Of a stretch of DNA of 64,000 nucleotides, positions 3,476 to 53,773 are shown one piece after another. The notes beneath the pieces were generated by a model. The model did not search any database and had not been told where the DNA came from. It worked only from the letters and a program-made list of their open reading frames with translations. Source of the DNA: Escherichia coli. GTDB lineage: Bacteria; Pseudomonadota; Gammaproteobacteria; Enterobacterales; Enterobacteriaceae. A program made the position numbers and the translations under genes. The stretch is taken from the NCBI RefSeq assembly GCF_003334385.1, contig NZ_QOWN01000024.1; one strand, written 5' to 3'. The first letter of the stretch is position 1. Each line of letters opens with the position of its first letter.

Positions 3476-4906
3476 ATGATACGTAAGTCAGTTACAGGTG
3501 TTATTGTTGCGTTAGCCGTAATCTGGGGTGGTGGCACATGGTACACAGGTACGCAAATTCAGCCTGGTGTCGAAAAATTTATTAAAGATTTTAACGATGC
3601 TAAAAAGAAAGGTGAACATGCCTACGATATGACGTTAAGTTATCAAAATTTTGACAAAGGCTTTTTTAATTCCCGTTTTCAAATGCAAATGACATTCGAT
3701 AACGGTGCACCCGATCTCAATATCAAGCCAGGCCAGAAAGTTGTATTTGATGTGGATGTTGAGCACGGTCCGTTGCCCATCACAATGTTAATGCATGGTA
3801 ATGTCATCCCAGCACTGGCAGCGGCAAAAGTGAACTTAGTGAATAATGAACTGACACAACCGCTATTTATCGCCGCGAAAAATAAATCGCCCGTGGAAGC
3901 GACATTGCGATTCGCGTTTGGTGGCTCATTCTCTACGACATTAGATGTTGCCCCTGCAGAGTATGGAAAGTTTTCTTTTGGTGAGGGCCAGTTTACTTTT
4001 AATGGTGATGGTAGTTCATTGTCTAACCTGGATATTGAAGGCAAAGTCGAAGATATTGTTCTGCAATTATCACCAATGAACAAAGTAACGGCAAAAAGTT
4101 TTACCATTGATTCTCTGGCGCGATTAGAAGAAAAGAAATTTCCGGTTGGTGAAAGCGAGTCGAAATTTAATCAGATTAACATTATCAATCACGGGGAAGA
4201 CGTTGCCCAAATCGATGCTTTCGTTGCAAAAACCAGGCTGGATCGCGTTAAAGACAAAGATTATATCAATGTCAATCTGACCTACGAACTTGATAAGTTA
4301 ACAAAAGGGAATCAGCAACTCGGTAGTGGTGAGTGGTCATTGATTGCTGAATCTATTGATCCCTCAGCAGTGCGCCAATTTATCATCCAGTATAACATTG
4401 CGATGCAGAAGCAGCTTGCTGCACATCCTGAGTTAGCAAACGATGAAGTTGCTCTGCAAGAAGTGAATGCTGCATTGTTCAAAGAGTATTTACCGTTATT
4501 ACAACAAAGTGAGCCGGCCATTAAACAACCGGTAAGATGGAAGAACGCACTCGGCGAACTAAATGCCAATCTGGATATCAGTATTGCCGACCCAGCCAAA
4601 TCTTCATCATCCACAAACAAAGATATCAAATCGCTCAATTTTGATGTGAAGTTACCGCTTAATGTCGCCACAGAAACCGCAAAACAGCTTAATTTATCTG
4701 AAGGAATGGATGCGGAAAAAGCGCAAAAGCAGGCTGATAAACAAATCAGCGGGATGATGACATTAGGTCAGATGTTTCAGTTAATCACGATTGACAACAA
4801 TACCGCCTCGCTGCAGCTGCGTTATACACCGGGTAAAGTTGTTTTTAACGGACAGGAGATGAGCGAAGAAGAATTTATGTCTCGTGCCGGACGTTTTGTT
4901 CATTAA
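3476..4906 (+). CDS. yihF: DUF945 family protein YihF
   Basis: 476 aa from Met MIRKSVTG with N-terminal hydrophobic segment; the six-frame ORF extends 14 codons upstream (3434). Confidence 0.8.
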   Translation: MIRKSVTGVIVALAVIWGGGTWYTGTQIQPGVEKFIKDFNDAKKKGEHAYDMTLSYQNFDKGFFNSRFQMQMTFDNGAPDLNIKPGQKVVFDVDVEHGPLPITMLMHGNVIPALAAAKVNLVNNELTQPLFIAAKNKSPVEATLRFAFGGSFSTTLDVAPAEYGKFSFGEGQFTFNGDGSSLSNLDIEGKVEDIVLQLSPMNKVTAKSFTIDSLARLEEKKFPVGESESKFNQINIINHGEDVAQIDAFVAKTRLDRVKDKDYINVNLTYELDKLTKGNQQLGSGEWSLIAESIDPSAVRQFIIQYNIAMQKQLAAHPELANDEVALQEVNAALFKEYLPLLQQSEPAIKQPVRWKNALGELNANLDISIADPAKSSSSTNKDIKSLNFDVKLPLNVATETAKQLNLSEGMDAEKAQKQADKQISGMMTLGQMFQLITIDNNTASLQLRYTPGKVVFNGQEMSEEEFMSRAGRFVH

Positions 4907-9029: not shown

Positions 9030-9176
9030 GATTCGCCTGAACATGCCCTTTTTTCGTAAGTAAGCAACATAAGCTGTCACGTTTTGTGATGGCTATTAGA
9101 AATTCCTATGCAACAACTGAAAAAAAATTACAAAAAGTGCTTTCTGAACTGAACAAAAAAGAGTAAAGTTAGTCGC

Positions 9177-9285
9177 GTAGGGTACAGAGGTAAGATGTTC
9201 TATCTTTCAGACCTTTTACTTCACGTAATCGGATTTGGCTGAATATTTTAGCCGCCCCAGTCAGTAATGACTGGGGCGTTTTTTA
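9177..9285 (+). ncRNA. spf: Spot 42 small RNA
   Basis: Recognised sequence gtagggtacagaggtaagatgttctatc... ending in terminator hairpin ccccagtcagtaatgactgggg plus T-run; located between polA and engB. Confidence 0.9.
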
Positions 9286-10313: not shown

Positions 10314-10556
10314 ATAGAGCGAGGACGCTAACAGGAACAATGACTCAGGATGAGGGTCAGGAGCGCCAGGAGGCGAAGACAGAGGATTGTCAGGAAGACA
10401 AACGTCCGGAGACGTAATTAAACGGAAATGGAATCAACACGGATTGTTCCGGCTAATGGAAAAACAGGGTGTGTTGGCGGCCTGCAAGGATTGTAAGACC
10501 CGTTAAGGGTTATGAGTCAGGAAAAAAGGCGACAGAGTAATCTGTCGCCTTTTTTC
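10314..10556 (+). ncRNA. csrC: CsrC small RNA (CsrA-sequestering)
   Basis: About 245 nt non-coding stretch rich in GGA-containing motifs (aggacg, caggaa, caggat, caggag, ccagga, ggagac), ending in hairpin ggcgacagagtaatctgtcgcc plus T-run; sits between engB and yihI. Confidence 0.85.
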
Positions 10557-10624
10557 TTTGCTTGCTTTCTGTTAGATTCCGCCGCAAATCTATACTGAAT
10601 AAAACGGCTAAAAGACGAACCATT

Positions 10625-12805: not shown

Positions 12806-12888
12806 TAGGCCGGATAAGGCGTTTACGCCGCATCAGGCATCTGAGCATGATGCCTGATGCGGCGCTGGTCGCGTCTTATCAGGCCTAC
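12806..12888. repeat. REP/BIME palindromic element
   Basis: gccggataaggcgtttacgccgcatcaggc ... gcgtcttatcaggcctac inverted REP pair. Confidence 0.85.
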
Positions 12889-17482: not shown

Positions 17483-17537
17483 GCACCAATATAGTGCTTC
17501 AATGGAAACATTAAGCACCATGTTGGTGCAATGACCT
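17483..17537 (-). promoter_or_regulatory. NtrC enhancer binding sites upstream of glnA
   Basis: Two dyad elements on the minus strand: tgcaccaacatggtgct and gcactatattggtgcaac (TGCACC-N5-GGTGCA type). Confidence 0.75.
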
Positions 17538-17681
17538 TTGGATAACCCTTTTTATGCTCCGTGAAAGCGATCACAAAGGGACTCTGCAATACTTGTTTGC
17601 GGAGGATGTTTGTGATCCTGTTTTGTAGTGCGATTAATCCGTGTACAATAACGCGCTATTTCTAATGCCTGAGGCAAAGTT

Positions 17682-19505
17682 GTGATCGAAAAATTGCGTA
17701 ATATCGCCATCATCGCGCACGTAGACCATGGTAAAACTACCCTGGTAGACAAGCTGCTCCAACAATCCGGTACGTTCGACTCTCGTGCCGAAACCCAAGA
17801 GCGCGTGATGGACTCCAACGATTTGGAGAAAGAGCGTGGGATTACCATCCTCGCGAAAAACACCGCTATCAAATGGAATGATTACCGTATCAACATCGTT
17901 GATACCCCGGGGCACGCCGACTTCGGTGGTGAAGTTGAACGTGTAATGTCCATGGTAGACTCAGTGCTGCTGGTGGTTGACGCATTTGACGGCCCGATGC
18001 CGCAAACGCGCTTCGTAACCAAAAAAGCGTTTGCTTACGGCCTGAAGCCGATTGTTGTTATCAACAAAGTTGACCGCCCTGGCGCGCGTCCTGATTGGGT
18101 TGTGGATCAGGTATTCGATCTGTTCGTTAACCTCGACGCGACCGACGAGCAGCTGGACTTCCCGATCGTTTACGCTTCTGCGCTGAACGGTATCGCGGGT
18201 CTGGACCACGAAGATATGGCGGAAGACATGACCCCGCTGTACCAGGCGATTGTTGACCACGTTCCTGCGCCGGACGTTGACCTTGACGGTCCGTTCCAGA
18301 TGCAGATTTCTCAGCTCGATTACAACAGCTATGTTGGCGTTATCGGCATTGGCCGCATCAAGCGCGGTAAAGTGAAGCCGAACCAGCAGGTCACTATCAT
18401 CGATAGCGAAGGCAAAACCCGCAACGCGAAAGTCGGTAAAGTGCTGGGCCACCTCGGTCTGGAACGTATCGAAACCGACCTGGCGGAAGCTGGCGATATC
18501 GTGGCGATCACGGGCCTGGGCGAACTGAACATTTCTGACACCGTTTGCGACACGCAAAACGTTGAAGCGCTGCCGGCACTCTCCGTTGATGAGCCGACCG
18601 TTTCTATGTTCTTCTGCGTTAACACCTCGCCGTTCTGCGGTAAAGAAGGTAAGTTCGTAACGTCTCGTCAGATCCTGGATCGTCTGAACAAAGAACTGGT
18701 ACACAACGTTGCGCTGCGCGTAGAAGAAACCGAAGACGCCGATGCGTTCCGCGTTTCTGGTCGTGGCGAACTGCACCTGTCTGTTCTGATCGAAAACATG
18801 CGTCGTGAAGGTTTCGAACTGGCGGTATCCCGTCCGAAAGTAATCTTCCGTGAAATCGACGGTCGTAAACAAGAGCCGTATGAAAACGTGACGCTGGACG
18901 TTGAAGAACAGCATCAGGGTTCTGTGATGCAGGCGCTGGGCGAACGTAAAGGCGACCTGAAAAACATGAATCCAGACGGTAAAGGCCGCGTACGTCTCGA
19001 CTACGTGATCCCAAGCCGTGGTCTGATTGGCTTCCGTTCTGAGTTCATGACCATGACTTCCGGTACTGGTCTGCTGTACTCCACCTTCAGCCACTACGAC
19101 GACGTACGTCCGGGTGAAGTGGGCCAGCGTCAGAACGGCGTACTGATCTCTAACGGTCAGGGTAAAGCGGTCGCGTTCGCGCTGTTCGGTCTGCAGGATC
19201 GCGGTAAGCTGTTCCTCGGTCACGGTGCAGAAGTTTACGAAGGTCAGATTATCGGTATTCATAGCCGCTCTAACGACCTGACGGTAAACTGCCTGACCGG
19301 TAAGAAACTGACCAACATGCGTGCTTCCGGTACTGACGAAGCCGTTGTTCTGGTTCCGCCTATCCGCATGACTCTGGAACAAGCTCTGGAGTTCATCGAT
19401 GATGACGAACTGGTAGAAGTGACTCCAACCTCTATCCGTATTCGTAAACGTCACCTGACGGAAAACGATCGTCGTCGCGCTAACCGCGCACCGAAAGACG
19501 ATTAA
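17682..19505 (+). CDS. typA: ribosome-dependent translational GTPase TypA/BipA
   Basis: 607 aa, GTG start; G-domain motifs [21 protein letters not shown]. Confidence 0.95.
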
Positions 19506-19526
19506 TTTCGTTTTTTAGTTATAAAA

Positions 19527-19555
19527 AACCTGCCATCGCTGGCAGGTTTTTTTTT
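19527..19555 (+). terminator. rho-independent terminator after typA
   Basis: Hairpin cctgccatcgctggcagg followed by a T-run. Confidence 0.8.
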
Positions 19556-19721
19556 ACCTGTCGTGAGCGCACACCAATGCGAGTATCTCCCTTATAAGTC
19601 TGTGATTACGTCAATAGAGAGCTTTGTCACAATTATCTGCAAAGTCATACACCGTTAATTGCTTTCTTTTTTGGCGTAAGCGTAAGATGCTTCATCTGGT
19701 TTAAACCAAAAGGATTAAACA

Positions 19722-28547: not shown

Positions 28548-28655
28548 AAATAATCTCCATAGAGTATAAAGCTAATATTTCATGCCATCCTGTTGTTACA
28601 GGTTTCATTAATTAAAGAATGTGGTGCTGGTATAAATTAAAACCCGCATAAGTGA

Positions 28656-29531
28656 TTATTTACTTTCTTCAGCCCGGCGGATTGCCGCCACTTTTTTACC
28701 AAATGCCAGTTGCAGTATAACTAACAAGGTAAAAGGAGGCAGAAGCGCGGCAGCAGCGGGAATTCCCAGCGCGCCTTTTATCAACATAGAACCGGAGGCA
28801 ATCAGCAACAAAAAGACCATCACACGGAACACTTTGACTGAAATGCGTTTATGCACATATTGTCCAACCAGTGAACCGAGGATCATGGTGGGAATACAAA
28901 ACAGCACCAGTTTAAAGATAGAAACAGTCAAAATTCCGCTGGTCGCCAGCCCGCCGATCACCGCGATGTTGTTTGCGGTGAAGAAAGCGTTCAGAGTGCC
29001 ACGAAATGCCGCCGGGCCTAAGTTACGCAGCATACCGTAGATAACCATCGGCGGTCCGTTGGTTGAAAACGCTGCCCCTAACGCTCCTGCCACAGCGCCG
29101 ATAGGTGCGGCGATCCAGTTGCGGTCATAAATCGGCAGGCGTGGAATAAACATACTGTAAAAGGAGTACAGGATAAGGAATCCGCCTAAGCCCACTTTCA
29201 TAAAATGGTCGGGTAAATATGACAGCGCATATAAACCGACGGGTATTCCCAGAAACGAGAAAATAATCAGTACCATTGCCGATCGCCAATCCGTTTCTTT
29301 ACGTGACAGCCAGGTGGCGTACAAGGCGGTCGCGGTGCCGACAATCACCGAGAGCGGAGTTGCCATTTTTACGGGGAGCATTAACGTGACGAGCGGCATG
29401 GTGGTTAAACCACCGCCAAATCCCGCGCATATCCCCACAAAGGTATAAAGAAACATTAACGCGATAACGATACATACCACGTTTGTTTCCAGCATGACCC
29501 CATCCGGTGAAAATAACGTAAAAAAGTCCAT
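28656..29531 (-). CDS. TauE/SafE-family (DUF81) inner membrane protein, putative sulfonate/anion exporter
   Basis: 291 aa ORF with about 8 hydrophobic helices and the family-typical glycine motif GFGGGL near the N-terminus and a second G-rich helix in the C-terminal half; RBS aggaaat 7 nt upstream; same strand and tight spacing with yihR (60 bp) and yihQ (108 bp). Not a gene I recognise at this position in K-12. Confidence 0.7.
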   Translation of the reverse strand: MDFFTLFSPDGVMLETNVVCIVIALMFLYTFVGICAGFGGGLTTMPLVTLMLPVKMATPLSVIVGTATALYATWLSRKETDWRSAMVLIIFSFLGIPVGLYALSYLPDHFMKVGLGGFLILYSFYSMFIPRLPIYDRNWIAAPIGAVAGALGAAFSTNGPPMVIYGMLRNLGPAAFRGTLNAFFTANNIAVIGGLATSGILTVSIFKLVLFCIPTMILGSLVGQYVHKRISVKVFRVMVFLLLIASGSMLIKGALGIPAAAALLPPFTLLVILQLAFGKKVAAIRRAEESK

Positions 29532-29591
29532 GATATTTCCTGTTGTGTAAATACAACCCTAAACAATGATCTCGTTCTTTTCTTAATAAAA

Positions 29592-30494
29592 TTAATTGTG
29601 CTGCCCGTAAATATTAAAAAACAGGCGGTGCGTTTTCCCTGGTTCCAGTAATAATAAGTCGAGACCTGAATTAAAGGCGTTAGGTGGGCAACTCATAGGT
29701 TCAACTGCCAGTCCCTGACGCTGTAATTTTTCGCCGCTATAAATCTGCACCCAGGGTTGATCGGAACAAAGGCTTACCGAAAGCGCCTGTTGTGGATGGG
29801 TAATGGTTATTTCCCACAGATCATTAGCGGTTTTAAAGGTGTGGTCGATTTTTGTCGCGGCTATTTTTTTCGCCTGCGTGAAATTTAAATCCAGCTCATC
29901 AACGTGGTGAAGCGTTGTCGGATTAGCGTGCTCATCGACGGCATAAACCTGGTTTGCCGGAAGCTGGAACAGATATTCATCAACAGATGTTAAGTTGCAG
30001 GTTAAATAAGGATGAATACCCACACCATAGGGTGCGGTCACAGTACCAATATTCTGACTTGCGATCTCAACGGAAAGACCCGTGCGTGCATTGAGCGAAT
30101 AAACAACCTGCGAAGCCAGCATAAACGGATAGCCGTAACTGGGTGGCAGAAAAGCTGTCAGGGTAACGCTGGTGGCGGTTAATTCGCTGATTTGCCAGTC
30201 ACGCCAGGCGAGCAGCCCATGAATAGCGGCTTTTGAACCATGTTCATTAATGGGTAACTGATATTCCTGCCCCTGATAGCGATAACAGCCGTTGGCGATC
30301 CGGTTCGGCCACGGAATAAGGACTTTGCCCAGATGTGCCAGCGGCATCTCTTCGGGTTTATGTGGAATAACTAAATGACAGCCCTGAAAGGTTAATTCAG
30401 CCAGACCTGCACCGACGGTCACAATGGTCGCGTGATAATCCCCCGCGGCAAGTGAAACGGTCTGTCCACTGCAATGCATGTTGGTGATTTGCAT
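29592..30494 (-). CDS. yihR: aldose-1-epimerase-like mutarotase YihR
   Basis: 300 aa ORF; no in-frame upstream start before a stop 21 codons upstream. Confidence 0.85.
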   Translation of the reverse strand: MQITNMHCSGQTVSLAAGDYHATIVTVGAGLAELTFQGCHLVIPHKPEEMPLAHLGKVLIPWPNRIANGCYRYQGQEYQLPINEHGSKAAIHGLLAWRDWQISELTATSVTLTAFLPPSYGYPFMLASQVVYSLNARTGLSVEIASQNIGTVTAPYGVGIHPYLTCNLTSVDEYLFQLPANQVYAVDEHANPTTLHHVDELDLNFTQAKKIAATKIDHTFKTANDLWEITITHPQQALSVSLCSDQPWVQIYSGEKLQRQGLAVEPMSCPPNAFNSGLDLLLLEPGKTHRLFFNIYGQHN

Positions 30495-30562
30495 ACGAGG
30501 TACCTTTATTGAATAACGACATACCCGGCGTGCAGCCTGATATGTCGTTTTTTTTTAGTCAG

Positions 30563-42818: not shown

Positions 42819-45800
42819 TTACACCTTTTCCACATTCACAAGGAAGGACTTAAACTCCGGCGTCTGCGTGTTCGCATCACCAACGAATGGCGTTAAAGTA
42901 TTGGCAATAAAGCCTTTTTTAGCTACGCCTTCATAGCCCCAGTGAATCGGAATACCGATGGTATCGATATCTTTGCCGTTCGCTTTCAGCGTGCGAATAC
43001 GTTTGGTCACCACCGCTTTGGCTTTGATATAGCCACGGTTGGAGGAGACTTTCACGGTATCGCCCTGGGCAATGCCAAGTTTATTCGCCAGCGACTCCCC
43101 GATTTCCACAAACTGCTCTGGCTGCAAAATCGCGTTCAACAGCGCGTGTTTGGTCCAGTAGTGGAAGTGCTCGGTCAGACGATAGGTGGTTCCGACATAC
43201 GGGAACTTATCGGCTTTACCCAATGCTTCGGCGTCGTCTTTAAAGATACGTGCAGCCGGGTTCGAGATAACGTTTGGATGCAGCGGGTTAGTTCCCAGCG
43301 GCGTTTCAAACGGCTCGTAGTGTTCCGGGAACGGACCTTCCGCCATCTTATCGAGGGCAAACAGACGCCCCATGCCTTCCTGCTGCATGATAAACGGCCC
43401 GACGCCGCTACCCGGAGGCGCTGCGCTGTAGTCCGGAATATCCCAGCCGGTCCACTTAGTGCCGTCCCATTTCAGCAACTGACGCTTCGGATCCCACGGG
43501 TTACCCTGCGGATCTGCGGAGGCGCGGTTATACAGAATGCGGCGGTTAAGCGGCCATGCCCATGCCCAGCCCAGCGTGTTACCGAGGCCAGACGGATCGG
43601 CGTTATCACGGCGTGCCATCTGGTTGCCTTCCGGCGTCCAGCTACCGGCGAAAATCCAGCAGCCACAGGAGGTTGTACCGTCATCGCGCAATTGGGCGAA
43701 CGAACTAAGTTGTTGGCCTTTCTTGACGATAACCGCACCGGTTGCCGGATCGGTAATATCGGCCAGCGCCTTACCGTTGCTCTCCATCGCCACTTCTTCT
43801 GAAGATGGCTCATGCGGAATGGCGTAGTTCCATGTCATGTTCAGCACCTGGTCCGGGTTCGCGCCACCCCGTTCGGCATACATCTTGCGCAAGCGCAGGA
43901 AGATACCGGAGAGGATCTCGCCGTCAGTCAGCGCAATCCCCGGGGCGTCCGCACCTTTCCAGTGCCACTGTAACCAGCGACCTGAGTTAACGATAGAACC
44001 GTTCTCTTCCGCGAAGCAGGTCGATGGCAGACGGAACACTTCGGTCTGGATCTTCGACGAGTCAACTTCGTTCAGCTCACCGTGGTTCTGCCAGAAGTTA
44101 GAGGTTTCAGTGTTCAGTGGGTCGATGGTGACGAGGAACTTCAGTTTCGACAGACAACCGATCACTTTGTTTTTGTTCGGGAATGAGGCAACAGGGTTAA
44201 AGCCCTGGCAGATATAGCCATTGACCTTGCCCTCTTTCATCATCTCGAAGTATTGCAGGACGTCGTAGCCTTTATCCCACTTCGGCAACCAGTCAAAGCC
44301 CCAGCTATTTTCCGCCGTCGCTTTATCACCAAAGAAGGCCTTCATCATAGAGACGAAGAATTTCGGGTAGTTGCCCCAGTAGTTTACCTGGCCTTCCAGC
44401 AGCGGTTTTGGCGTGTTGGCGGTAAGGTAGGTTTGCAGATCGGTCTGCTTCTCGCTTGGCAGCGTCATGTAACCTGGCAGGCTCTGCGACAGCAGCCCCA
44501 GGTCCGTCAGCCCCTGAATATTGGAGTGACCGCGCAGGGCGTTAACGCCGCCGCCTGCCATCCCCATATTGCCGAGCAGCAGCTGGATCATCGCCATCGT
44601 ACGAATGTTTTGCGCACCAACGGAGTGTTGCGTCCAGCCGAGGGCATACAGGAACGAGGCAGTTTTATCGTGAGCACTGGTTTCTGCGATGTATTCGCAG
44701 ACTTTCAGGAACGCGTCTTTTGGCGTACCACAGATGTTTTCAACCACATCTGGCGTGTAGCGGGAAACGTGCTGTTTCAGCAAGTTCCACACGCAGCGCG
44801 GATGTTGCAGCGTGGTATCGCGTTTGGCGAAGCCGTTTTCGTCCAGTTCATAAGTCCAGGAGGATTTATCGTACTTGCGTTTTTCCGCGTCGTAGCCGGT
44901 GAACAGGCCATCTTCAAAGCCGTAATCCTCACGCACGATCAGGCTGGCGTTGGTATAGGCTTCGGTGTATTCGCGGTTGAATTTTTCATTGTTCAGCAGG
45001 TACAGCAATACGCCTGACAGGAAAGCAATGTCAGTACCGGAACGAATAGGGGCATAGTAGTCAGCTACCGCCGCCGTACGCGTAAAGCGAGGATCGATCA
45101 CAATCAGTTTCGCGCCGTTGTGAATTTTGGCTTCCATCGCCCAGCGGAACCCGACCGGGTGAGCTTCAGCGGCGTTACCGCCCATCACCACGACGAGGTT
45201 GGCGTTCTTGATGTCGACCCAGTGGTTGGTCATCGCACCGCGACCAAATGTTGGAGCAAGACTTGCTACCGTTGGTCCGTGTCAGACACGCGCCTGGTTG
45301 TCGACCGCGAGCATACCCAGCGCGCGGGAGAATTTTTGCGTTAAATAGCCGGTTTCGTTACTCGACGCGGAAGCACACAGCATCCCGGTGGAGAGCCAGC
45401 GGTTAACAGTCACGCCTTCGGCGTTTTGCGCAATGTAGTTAGCATCGCGGTCTTCTTTCATCAGTTTGGCGATGCGATCAAACGCCTCTTCCCAACTGAT
45501 TTGCTGCCATTTATCAGAACCTGGCGCACGGTATTCCGGAAACTTCAGACGGCTTTCGGAGTGGATGAAATCCACCAGGCCAGCGCCTTTCGGACAAAGT
45601 GCACCGCGGTTGACCGGGTGATCCGGATCGCCTTCGATATGGAAGATAGATGCTTTGGCGTTTTTTGCTCCGTCACCGAGGCTGTACATCAACAGCCCAC
45701 AGCCTACGGAACAATAGGTGCAGGTATTACGGGTTTCGCGGGTGCGCAGCAGTTTATACTGCCGGGTTTCCGCGAGTGCTACGCTGGGTGCAAAACCCAG

Positions 45801-48153: not shown

Positions 48154-49659
48154 TCACCCCTTGTGAAGTAACTCCATAAATGCCTCATATCCTGTTAACC
48201 CGGCAATAACCTCTGCCGGATGCTGACACAATACGCTTGCCAGATAGCTGAATATTTTCAACTCGTGACGCGCATCGGCGGCGGCGCAGGCGATCAAGAC
48301 ATGGTTAATGACTTCGTTATTCACCTCAACTGGTTGGGCGAGGGTAATAAAAAATCCACGAAAACGTCGCTCCTGTTCGCTCCAGCAATGTGGGATGGCG
48401 AGGCGATTAACAATCAGGTTTTCACCTTCGCCTTCGCGGGCGATGATCCGTTGCGCTTCATCGGCGGTAATATGGTGTTGTGCCACTAATTGCGCACAAA
48501 TTTGCCGGGTAATATGTTGCCAGCTTTCACCGCGTACATTCGAATAATGAAAACTTCCGGGGGCAGAGAAAAAACGCTCCGGTTGCTGGCGAATAAATGC
48601 CGTCGCCAGAAAATGTTTTATTTGTTCGATACCGGCAGCCGTAATGATATTTTTTACGGTGATGTAATTATTGACCGCGTCATCCAGTAAATAATGGCTG
48701 TTGTTAATGATCAATAACGGCTCAATCTCTTCGCGAATGGCAACAAGTTCGCTTAAGCTACGGGCAATAATCACCCGACAATGTAAAACATCGCGCTCAA
48801 TGGCGAGCTGATTAATGGTGGCAATCGCGTTCTGGTCCGAGAGCAAAATGATCGGCTGGCGTTCGTTTTGATGCCGCTCCAGCGCACAGGCAAAATACAA
48901 ACCGATCAGATCGCTGTCGAAAAGGGGAATATCGAGCTGTTCACGCAGTAGCGTAATAAAGTGCAGACTCATATCAAAGGCCGCAGGCCAGGCGGCTTTC
49001 AGGTTATTCATGCTGCTCTGGCGGTGCTCAGCAATCCACACTGGTGCGGCAAGGCAACGTAATAAATGCCCGGTAATATTCTCAACCAGCTGCGCATCAA
49101 TAATATTCAATGACGCGATGCCCGGCACCCTTTGCAGCAACCCCTGCACATTATCGGCTGAAATTACCTGCGCTTGCTGATGCTGTTTCTCTATCAAACC
49201 CGTCAGGGTTCTTACAGCGTTATCACCAAGAAACAGACCGCTATGTTCAACGATTTGTTTTATCTCGTCACCGGGATATTGCGGCCACTCATCGGTCAGT
49301 TGATTACGCAGGGCGTAAATCGCCAGAATCAGGCTGGAGAGATAATCACCCTGCATGAGCGGCCAGCGGTGTTGGTTGTCGCAGGCCGTGGATAAATGCT
49401 GAAGGTTGTCTCGTGTTATGCCCGCCAGCGGAATTAAAAACGGATCTTTGCGCAGCAAGTTCGCCAGCAAGATAACGCGTTTCTCTTCTTCTACCATGGC
49501 AAACAGCAGATTACGCGCTTTGTCGAGATAGATGGCGTAGTTATGCGCACCGTGAGATTTCAGCACTGCTTCCAGTTCTGGCCAGATGGGATTATGCCGA
49601 CGCTGATACTCTTCGTGGGCGTCGGGGTTTACCTGCATGACAAAGGCTTTGCGGATCAT
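48154..49659 (-). CDS. in-frame fusion ORF: RhaM (L-rhamnose mutarotase) N-terminal ~57 aa joined to the C-terminal ~444 aa of an FrvR-like PTS-operon regulator; marks a deletion of frvA-frvB-frvX
   Basis: 501 aa ORF starting [57 protein letters not shown] (RhaM N-terminus as I recall it), then continuing [12 protein letters not shown]... to a C-terminus next to yiiG, where frvR lies in K-12. Junction near 49480-49495. Confidence 0.65.
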
Positions 49660-49668
49660 GTTTGCTCC

Positions 49669-50494
49669 TTACAGCGCCAGCGCACTGGCGAGTGGCGTAA
49701 CGCCGAAACGCTTGCCGAGCGCTATCAACTCTTCACGGCTGATGGTCTGTTTCATGCCGCCCATCGAATAAACCTTCACTAATACTTGTGCTGATTTTTC
49801 TGCGGTGTCGATTAAACCGAAGATTTCATCCAGCGTCGGTCCGCTGCCGAAGACGCCGTGGAAGGGCCACAACACCAGCGAATGTTTTTGCATCTCTTGT
49901 GCGGTCGCCTGGCCGATTTCGTCCGTGCCGGGCACCATCCACGGCAAAATGCCAACGCCATCCGGGAATACCACCAGACACTCGGTGCTGCCTTCCCACA
50001 GTTGGCGAGTGAAGACCGCGGTGTCGTTTTCAAGTACATAGGTGAGGGCGGATCAGGTTGGTGGCGTGGCAGTGCATGATCACCCGATCTTTGCCGTTGG
50101 TGGCTTTAATGCGCTCGCAGTGGGAAAGGAAGTGAGCCGGAAGTTCGGAAGTGGGGACGGCTTCGTTGGTTAACCCCCAAAGAATGTGGTAGCCCGCGCC
50201 GTCGCTGTCGACTTTTACGATGCCTAAGTTAGCCGCAGGATCAAGCTGGACGTTACGGAAGAATTTGCCCGAGCCGGTGACAATAAACGGTGTATTTGCC
50301 AGTAAAGGCATGGGCTGGCTGAGCGGGATATAGCGCGGTTGTTGGTGGAAATTGTCGTGATATGGTGCGATATCGGCGTCATCCAGGCGTAGCGTCAGGT
50401 TGCCGCCGTTGCGCTCATCCCAGCCTTTCAGCCAGGCGTCGGTGGTGGCTTTGATCATTCCCTGGACAAACCAGGACTGAGTAATGTTTTGCAT
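49669..50494 (-). pseudogene. rhaD: rhamnulose-1-phosphate aldolase rhaD disrupted by a +1 frameshift
   Basis: N-terminal 211 aa ORF (true start [11 protein letters not shown] at 50494) ends NLIRPHLCT* at 50030. The C-terminal part continues in another frame ([33 protein letters not shown]...). Total 826 nt versus 825 expected; the extra base is in gggcGgatc near 50050. Confidence 0.8.
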
Positions 50495-50524
50495 GTTCTG
50501 TGTTCCTGTAAATTCGGTGTTGTC

Positions 50525-50760
50525 GGATGCACGACCCGTAGGCCGGATAAGGCGCTCGCGCCGCATCCGGCAATCAATGCCTGATGCGACGCTGTCGCGT
50601 CTTATCAGGCCTACAACTATTGCCGACCTGTAGGCCGGATAAGGCACTTGTGCCGCATCCGGCAATCAATGCCTGATGCGACGCTGTCGCGTCTTATCAG
50701 GCCTACAACTGTTGCCGACCCGTAGGCCGGATAAGGCGCTCGCGCCGCATCCGGCAGTGT
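50525..50760. repeat. tandem BIME/REP array (about 2.5 copies of a ~95 bp unit) between rhaD and rhaA
   Basis: Repeated unit gtaggccggataaggc...gccgcatccggcaatcaatgcctgatgcgacgctgtcgcgtcttatcaggcctacaact. Confidence 0.9.

Positions 50761-53773
<3,013 letters not shown>

Follow-up and report, generated by a model that had tools for sequence, protein, structure and literature searches.

The window analysed here is the whole 64,000-nt stretch of Escherichia coli contig NZ_QOWN01000024.1 (assembly GCF_003334385.1), which is collinear with positions 4,040,724-4,107,962 of the K-12 chromosome. The minus strand carries rhaA and rhaD, two genes of the rhaBAD operon, separated by a 266-nt spacer (50495-50760) that is mostly filled by a tandem array. 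The placement of this array between the two genes, proposed in a first-pass annotation, is confirmed by the rhaD ATG at 50494 on one side and the rhaA stop at 50763-50761 on the other. Tandem Repeats Finder reported it as the sole array, at 50532-50756, with a period of 92 nt, 2.4 copies, 93% matches, 0 indels and a score of 415, a score that at this period is far beyond chance. A repeat search placed in-register copies at 50532-50623 and 50624-50715 (95% identical), followed by a partial third copy from 50716. Units 1 and 2 are identical at 87/92 positions, differing at 5/92, and the partial unit 3 matches the start of unit 1 at 41/41 positions.

REP typing, in which the spacer was tokenised with REP head and tail motifs, resolved the array into five REPs in the order Y-Z2-Y-Z2-Y, with orientations -, +, -, +, -. 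The first-pass annotation had described three REP-containing units amounting to about 2.5 copies of ~95 bp; the tandem repeat itself is real, and its dimensions are corrected here to a period of 92 nt, 2.4 copies and five REP hairpins. The features of the locus, in order along the window, are as follows.

49490..49492, no strand assigned: deletion junction, from inside frvR to inside rhaM, 3,822 bp relative to K-12; REP-free and outside the array.
49669..50494, minus: rhaD, with its ATG at 50494 and a one-base insertion (G) at 50050 that shifts the frame; identified by homology and outside the array.
50495..50537, minus: 43-nt leader from the last REP to the rhaD ATG, with a Shine-Dalgarno-like AGGA (sequence and typing).
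50532..50756, no strand assigned: the BIME-2 as a whole (Tandem Repeats Finder and repeat search).
50538..50571, minus: rhaD-proximal Y REP, GCCGGATGCGGCGCGAGCGCCTTATCCGGCCTAC on the minus (mRNA) strand; RNA hairpin of -21.3 kcal/mol (REP typing and fold).
50572..50578, no strand assigned: S-type 7-nt linker AATCAAT, from Y to Z2 (REP typing).
50579..50614, plus: Z2 REP, GCCTGATGCGACGCTGTCGCGTCTTATCAGGCCTAC on the plus strand; mRNA-strand hairpin of -20.5 kcal/mol (REP typing and fold).
50615..50629, no strand assigned: 15-nt linker AACTATTGCCGACCT, from Z2 to the next Y (REP typing).
50630..50663, minus: middle Y REP, a compensatory variant with an A-T for a G-C inner stem pair (typing and fold).
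50664..50670, no strand assigned: second 7-nt linker AATCAAT (REP typing).
50671..50706, plus: second Z2 REP, identical to the first (REP typing).
50707..50721, no strand assigned: 15-nt linker AACTGTTGCCGACCC (REP typing).
50722..50755, minus: rhaA-proximal Y REP, which leads on the mRNA and has the same sequence as the rhaD-proximal Y (REP typing).
50756..50760, minus: 5-nt spacer, ACACU on the mRNA, from the rhaA stop to the first REP stem, unchanged in all 15 alleles typed (sequence and typing).
50761..52020, minus: rhaA (L-rhamnose isomerase), stop TAA at 50763-50761 (homology with annotated E. coli genomes).

Two open reading frames drawn through the array (50030-50665 on the minus strand and 50676-50954 on the plus strand) were discarded as open-frame artefacts, the rhaD start being placed at 50494 by homology. 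Over the 64 kb of the window the REP pattern identified 13 REPs, among which the rha array forms the largest cluster. Other features of the window were recorded as well. Rfam matches at 9167-9285, 10314-10567, 17493-17600, 19490-19558 and 45229-45287 comprise Spot 42, CsrC, ES222, STnc370 and the fdoG SECIS element. The interval between yihQ and yihR (28566-29600) measures ~1 kb, against ~190 bp in K-12, and an ORF on the minus strand at 28656-29531 encodes a hydrophobic, membrane-protein-like product of 291 aa with no NCBIfam match. The yihR segment at 29601-30510 is 94.8% identical to K-12, compared with 98.6-99.9% elsewhere.

BIME-2 elements are defined by y and z2 REPs in inverted orientation, a short S linker, a short linker (s, l or r) on the other side and multiple tandem copies, and their unit number is known to differ between E. 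coli strains (Ton-Hoang et al. 2012, PMC3333891). The rha array is made up of three 34-nt Y copies (GCCGGATGCGGC...CCGGCCTAC) and two 36-nt Z2 copies (GCCTGATGCGACGC...ATCAGGCCTAC), with REPs and inverted REPs alternating (-, +, -, +, -). The assignment of the Z copies to Z2 instead of Z1 was made by length, partly with reference to the REP consensus sequences. The 7-nt linker AATCAAT alternates with a 15-nt linker, AACTRTTGCCGACCY, and a long L linker is absent; the 2.4 tandem copies found here correspond to a number that varies in other E. coli, and the array is wholly extragenic, lying between the rhaD start and the rhaA stop. At the level of the sequence, every BIME-2 property that could be tested is present. 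Our favoured reading is that the element is the rhaA-rhaD BIME-2 of E. coli, with the structure Y(Z2-Y)2, that it represents a common natural allele and that it affects the operon as proposed below, a joint interpretation to which we assign a probability of about 0.85.

The variation in unit number at this locus was surveyed in 5,426 complete E. coli genomes, using as query only 400 nt of rhaD and 400 nt of rhaA. Genomes were sampled at regular intervals along the complete ranked list of matches, and both flanks were found together in 59 of them. One representative of each length class was typed by sequence and the other genomes were assigned by length, with the following distribution.

Spacer of 82 or 92 nt: one Y REP, n = 0; 12/59 genomes.
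Spacer of 174-184 nt: n = 1; 14/59 genomes.
Spacer of 241 nt: one REP plus an unrelated insert of ~159 nt; 7/59 genomes.
Spacer of 266 or 276 nt: n = 2; 6/59 genomes.
Spacer of 358 or 368 nt: n = 3; 3/59 genomes.
Spacer of 450 or 460 nt: n = 4; 16/59 genomes.
Spacer of 723 nt: n = 7, 15 REPs; 1/59 genomes.

In this comparison of copy number with other E. coli, which the first-pass annotation had recommended, the REP structure was always Y(Z2-Y)n, with n = 0, 1, 2, 3, 4 and 7 in the 59-genome sample and n = 2 in the window. The K-12 MG1655 spacer at this locus measures 450 nt and holds nine REPs that match those of the window in sequence; taking two 92-nt units (184 bp) out of the K-12 allele, exactly in register, yields the window allele. 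Strains whose flanks are 100% identical to those of the window display n = 4, 3, 2 and 0, an exact in-register series of the kind expected of slippage, unequal recombination or TnpA-REP recombination. By the mechanism that we propose, unit number most likely shifts through slippage, unequal recombination between the 92-nt repeats, or RAYT activity. In all the alleles typed (15/15), the stop-proximal Y is kept exactly 5 nt from the rhaA stop. At least 60 complete genomes, three E. coli HS assembly records among them, match the array of the window together with 50 nt on each side (366 nt) at 100% identity. With its identical flanks, the natural series n = 0, 2, 3 and 4 provides ready-made alleles for testing the number of REPs against operon expression.

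Beyond the alleles of the series, the 241-nt spacer, found in E. coli OkiPb01708 and six other sampled genomes, contains a GC-rich, internally palindromic insert of ~159 nt (CCCTCACCCTAACCCTCTCCCC...GGGAGAGGGCCGGGGTGAGGG) that looks like another small repeat family; a search of this allele against Rfam gave weak, sub-threshold matches to REP models nearby and none over the insert. Outside E. coli, a scan of one-genome-per-species contigs with a 19-mer spanning the REP end and the rhaA stop matched a single cryptic-clade Escherichia, Escherichia sp. MOD1-EC7003. There, at least seven Y+Z2 units adjoin the 3' end of rhaA, again 5 nt from the stop codon, and the sequence past the array is unlike the rhaD leader of E. 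coli.

The array is positioned, like REP325, between two co-oriented genes (rhaA and rhaD, minus strand), and it forms stable hairpins on the mRNA strand. The intercistronic region folds on that strand with -148.2 kcal/mol (z = -7.6 against dinucleotide shuffles), single REP RNA hairpins reaching -20 to -21 kcal/mol. The inner stem pair of Y, compared in 43 copies of 34 nt from rhaA-rhaD spacers, is G-C in 11, A-T in 29 and intermediate in three, so that the hairpin is preserved by a compensatory change. The first stem base lies 5 nt (ACACU) from the rhaA TAA, inside the 15-nt limit after a stop codon within which a REP lowers translation of the preceding gene (Liang, Rudd and Deutscher 2015, as related in PMC12306157). 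Across 49400-51400 we found neither intrinsic-terminator-like sites nor, on either strand, sigma-70-like promoters; on these grounds we set aside a classical terminator as well as promoters for rhaD within the operon or for an antisense sRNA.

By analogy with characterised REP systems, three effects on the operon can be proposed. The five hairpins carried by the rhaBAD mRNA would most likely block 3'-to-5' exonucleases, stabilising the upstream rhaBA portion; the array would probably attenuate, in part, transcription into rhaD, as REP325 does between yjdM and yjdN; and the first REP, 5 nt after the rhaA stop, could reduce RhaA production by making ribosomes stall as they terminate. A search of the literature for REPs in rhaBAD returned, within the searchable library, no relevant paper and no mRNA or protein experiment on the rha array. 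In the window itself, rhaD is frameshifted, so tuning of rhaD expression no longer matters there.

The alternative that survives best holds that the array is neutral or selfish DNA, amplified by RAYT or by slippage, with no host function at this locus. Unit number ranges from 0 to 7 between otherwise near-identical flanks, and ~20% of the sampled genomes have just one REP (n = 0) and lack the unrelated insert; with about one fifth of the sample at n = 0, the extra units are dispensable and may be neutral or selfish. Furthermore, TnpA-REP cleaves and recombines BIMEs in vitro, its substrates being marked by a GTAG tetranucleotide 5' of the stem and by C|T cleavage in the inverted REP (PMC3333891). 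The rha array carries the corresponding motifs, with GTAGGCC flanking every REP and TGCCTGAT and GGCCTAC present in the Z2 copies, which thereby contain the cleavage motifs TGCC|TGAT and GCC|TAC. Against an entirely functionless array, however, the stop-proximal Y is retained at exactly 5 nt in every allele examined, cryptic-clade Escherichia included, the compensatory change preserves hairpin pairing, and the REP325 array alters the expression of neighbouring genes 3- to 10-fold at its endogenous locus. We regard the absence of any host function as a real but distinctly less probable possibility.

Another reading would make unit number at rhaA-rhaD a fast-mutating, selected dial for the ratio of RhaB and RhaA to RhaD, with the in-register series reflecting adaptive tuning and not neutral slippage. 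Were this so, the number of units would control the flux of rhamnulose-1-phosphate and lactaldehyde. We consider such a selected function unlikely, and retain as our preferred reading a common BIME-2 allele with the operon effects proposed above.

A further question is whether n = 2 is the true number of units in the window, or an artefact produced by a short-read assembler collapsing a longer array, for instance a K-12-like one with n = 3 or 4. The difference from K-12 is exactly 184 bp and can be placed at 78 equivalent positions, as the collapse of identical repeats would give. Among drafts of the lineage that shares the frv-rhaM deletion of the window (described below), one scaffold (GCA_000407805.1) has an N run within the array and two contigs stop precisely where its first Y+Z2 unit ends, and metagenome assemblies of the same lineage give n = 0, 1 and 2. 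The assemblies of K-12 substr. GM4792 and of the laboratory strain MC1061 have n = 2 against n = 4 in MG1655, the result either of units lost during laboratory propagation or of collapse by the assembler. For short-read assembly the array is both a breakpoint and a trap, and the earlier caution on copy-number ambiguity was well placed, since drafts break or carry N-gaps inside it. Collapse is nevertheless opposed by the occurrence of the identical 266-nt allele in at least 60 complete genomes and of the same allele, with one substitution, in the complete genome of SCU-104, a strain of the deletion lineage. The n = 2 allele, present in all three E. coli HS assembly records, certainly exists in nature and is plausible for the window; an artefactual n = 2 appears quite improbable. 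As assemblies break or collapse at the array, unit number obtained without long reads is not to be over-interpreted.

Two lesions lie close to the array, and their proximity had led to the suggestion that the array is a recombination hotspot behind, or mechanistically linked to, both of them. Both lesions and their approximate distances from the array, given in the first-pass annotation as ~500 bp and ~1 kb, are real. In rhaD, one extra G at 50050 relative to strain H2 (GAGGGCGATC to GAGGGCGGATC) produces a frameshift in unique sequence, 482 bp from the array. At the deletion junction, ~1.04 kb from the array, the 5' part of frvR, frvX, frvB, frvA and the 3' part of rhaM are missing compared with K-12, and the two sides share ~3 bp of microhomology. 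The junction creates an in-frame fusion ORF (48154-49659, minus strand) of 501 aa, which joins ~56 N-terminal residues of RhaM to the C-terminal part of FrvR, covers FrvR profile positions 136-586 with loss of the N-terminal part, and immediately follows rhaD in the rhamnose operon. An exact copy of the fusion protein appears in 149 blocks of the assembly collection, which makes it a widespread natural lineage allele, and a 34-mer across the junction had no match in one-genome-per-species contigs.

The distribution of these lesions separates them from the array. The frameshift is shared by a single one of eight sampled members of the deletion lineage, GCA_012504395.1, and is therefore younger than the deletion; that genome is also the only one sampled to have the array of the window together with its frameshift. 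In deletion-lineage genomes rhaD is mostly intact, with arrays of n = 0, 1 and 2. Conversely, the array is found unchanged in at least 60 complete genomes, and rhaD, rhaM, frvA, frvB and frvX are all intact in the three whose genes were inspected (3/3), namely strain H2, E. coli HS and MC1061. Identical arrays beside an intact frv-rha region were the very outcome that the first-pass annotation had named as refuting functional relevance. A REP-mediated origin of the frv-rhaM deletion is rejected, as neither endpoint lies in a REP: the K-12 interval 4,088,000-4,094,300 contains no REP besides the array itself. With proximity as the sole argument in its favour, and against it these REP-free endpoints, a microhomology junction, a single G inserted in unique sequence, identical arrays beside intact genes and deletion-lineage genomes with mostly intact rhaD, a hotspot role in these lesions is very improbable. 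The array is unrelated to the rhaD frameshift and to the frv deletion, and the tie between them does not hold.

It is likewise hardly credible that the units encode naRNA4-like nucleoid-associated RNAs acting with HU in chromosome condensation, as originally claimed for REP325 (Qian 2015, PMC4550694). The Rfam model RF02564 (naRNA4), built on REP325, which is the source of naRNA4, recognises the two full units on the plus strand: 50541-50611 scores 77 bits and 50633-50703 scores 76.6 bits, both exceeding the gathering score of 59.5. This strand is, however, antisense to the rhaBAD operon and has no promoter-like site there, whereas on the rhaBAD mRNA strand the matches reach 56.5 and 53.2 bits, below 59.5. 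The model also matches, at the gathering score, unrelated REP pairs at 12808-12885 (plus) and 59548-59625 (minus), and consequently behaves as a generic REP-pair model; its matches, rejected as proof of a specific sRNA gene, mark the repeat class only. Moreover, a 2026 preprint, one of whose authors also signed the original report, saw no compaction of the nucleoid by either REP325 or naRNA4 (bioRxiv 10.64898/2026.03.23.713779).

The remaining candidate class differs from the rha array in its basic architecture. BIME-1, or RIP, elements combine Y with Z1, occur as single copies and have a long conserved L linker that carries an IHF site. The rha array shares with them inverted-orientation REPs and an intergenic position, but there is virtually no chance that it is an IHF-binding BIME-1 (RIP/RIB) element, a reading suggested by the general reputation of BIMEs and nothing more, given its 7- and 15-nt linkers with no long L linker, its long, Z2-type Z copies, a K-12 locus catalogued as BIME-2, and the absence from the array of the IHF consensus WATCAANNNNTTR, which the 64 kb contain once, at 3641. 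As both the L linker and the consensus are lacking, binding by IHF is not a property of this array; among the roles listed in the first-pass annotation it is the one to be removed, those of mRNA stabiliser, gyrase site and recombination-prone sequence being in keeping with the BIME class.

The closest known counterpart of the element is the K-12 rhaA-rhaD BIME-2, which has the same locus, flanks, Y and Z2 sequences and linkers as the window allele, and differs from it in size (nine REPs in 450 nt against five in 266 nt) and in being followed by a rhaD that is not frameshifted as it is in the window. This element is catalogued as 'BIMEs2 rhaA>-rhaD>', of 401 bp, in a gyrase map of K-12 (Sutormin et al. 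2018, PMC6379681), with four cleavage sites under ciprofloxacin (Cfx), two under rifampicin plus ciprofloxacin (RifCfx), one under microcin (Micro) and none under oxolinic acid (Oxo). Gyrase prefers the y REPs of BIME-2, and the K-12 rha allele is a documented site of transcription-independent gyrase cleavage in vivo (PMC6379681). By extension from K-12, the window allele, which has three of the five y REPs preferred by gyrase, probably binds gyrase too. The element class, the K-12 locus, its gyrase cleavage and the variation of unit number among strains are all already documented, and with everything central on record the array carries little weight as a discovery.

As regards expression, two other REP systems offer a comparison. 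The single or paired REPs of cases such as malE-malF reportedly act as mRNA stabilisers (Newbury et al. 1987, Cell 48:297, as cited in PMC12306157). The rha array would resemble them in having intercistronic REP hairpins that shield the upstream mRNA from 3' exonucleases and allow differential expression within an operon, and it differs in its tandem series of five REPs as opposed to one or two.

REP325, between yjdM and yjdN, is closer in structure and mechanistically the best tested; its Y+Z2 units are repeated in tandem between genes that share an operon and an orientation, and it differs in having six units (against 2.4 in rha) and in the operon to which it belongs. At the native locus, its deletion raised expression of the downstream yjdN ~8- to 10-fold and lowered that of the upstream yjdM ~3-fold; it functions as a partly Rho-dependent attenuator and as a stabiliser of the upstream mRNA (Harris 2026, bioRxiv 10.64898/2026.03.23.713779). 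According to the same study, REP effects depend on context and half-lives are not uniformly lengthened, and, genome-wide, tandem gene pairs with an intervening REP are biased toward expression of the upstream gene.
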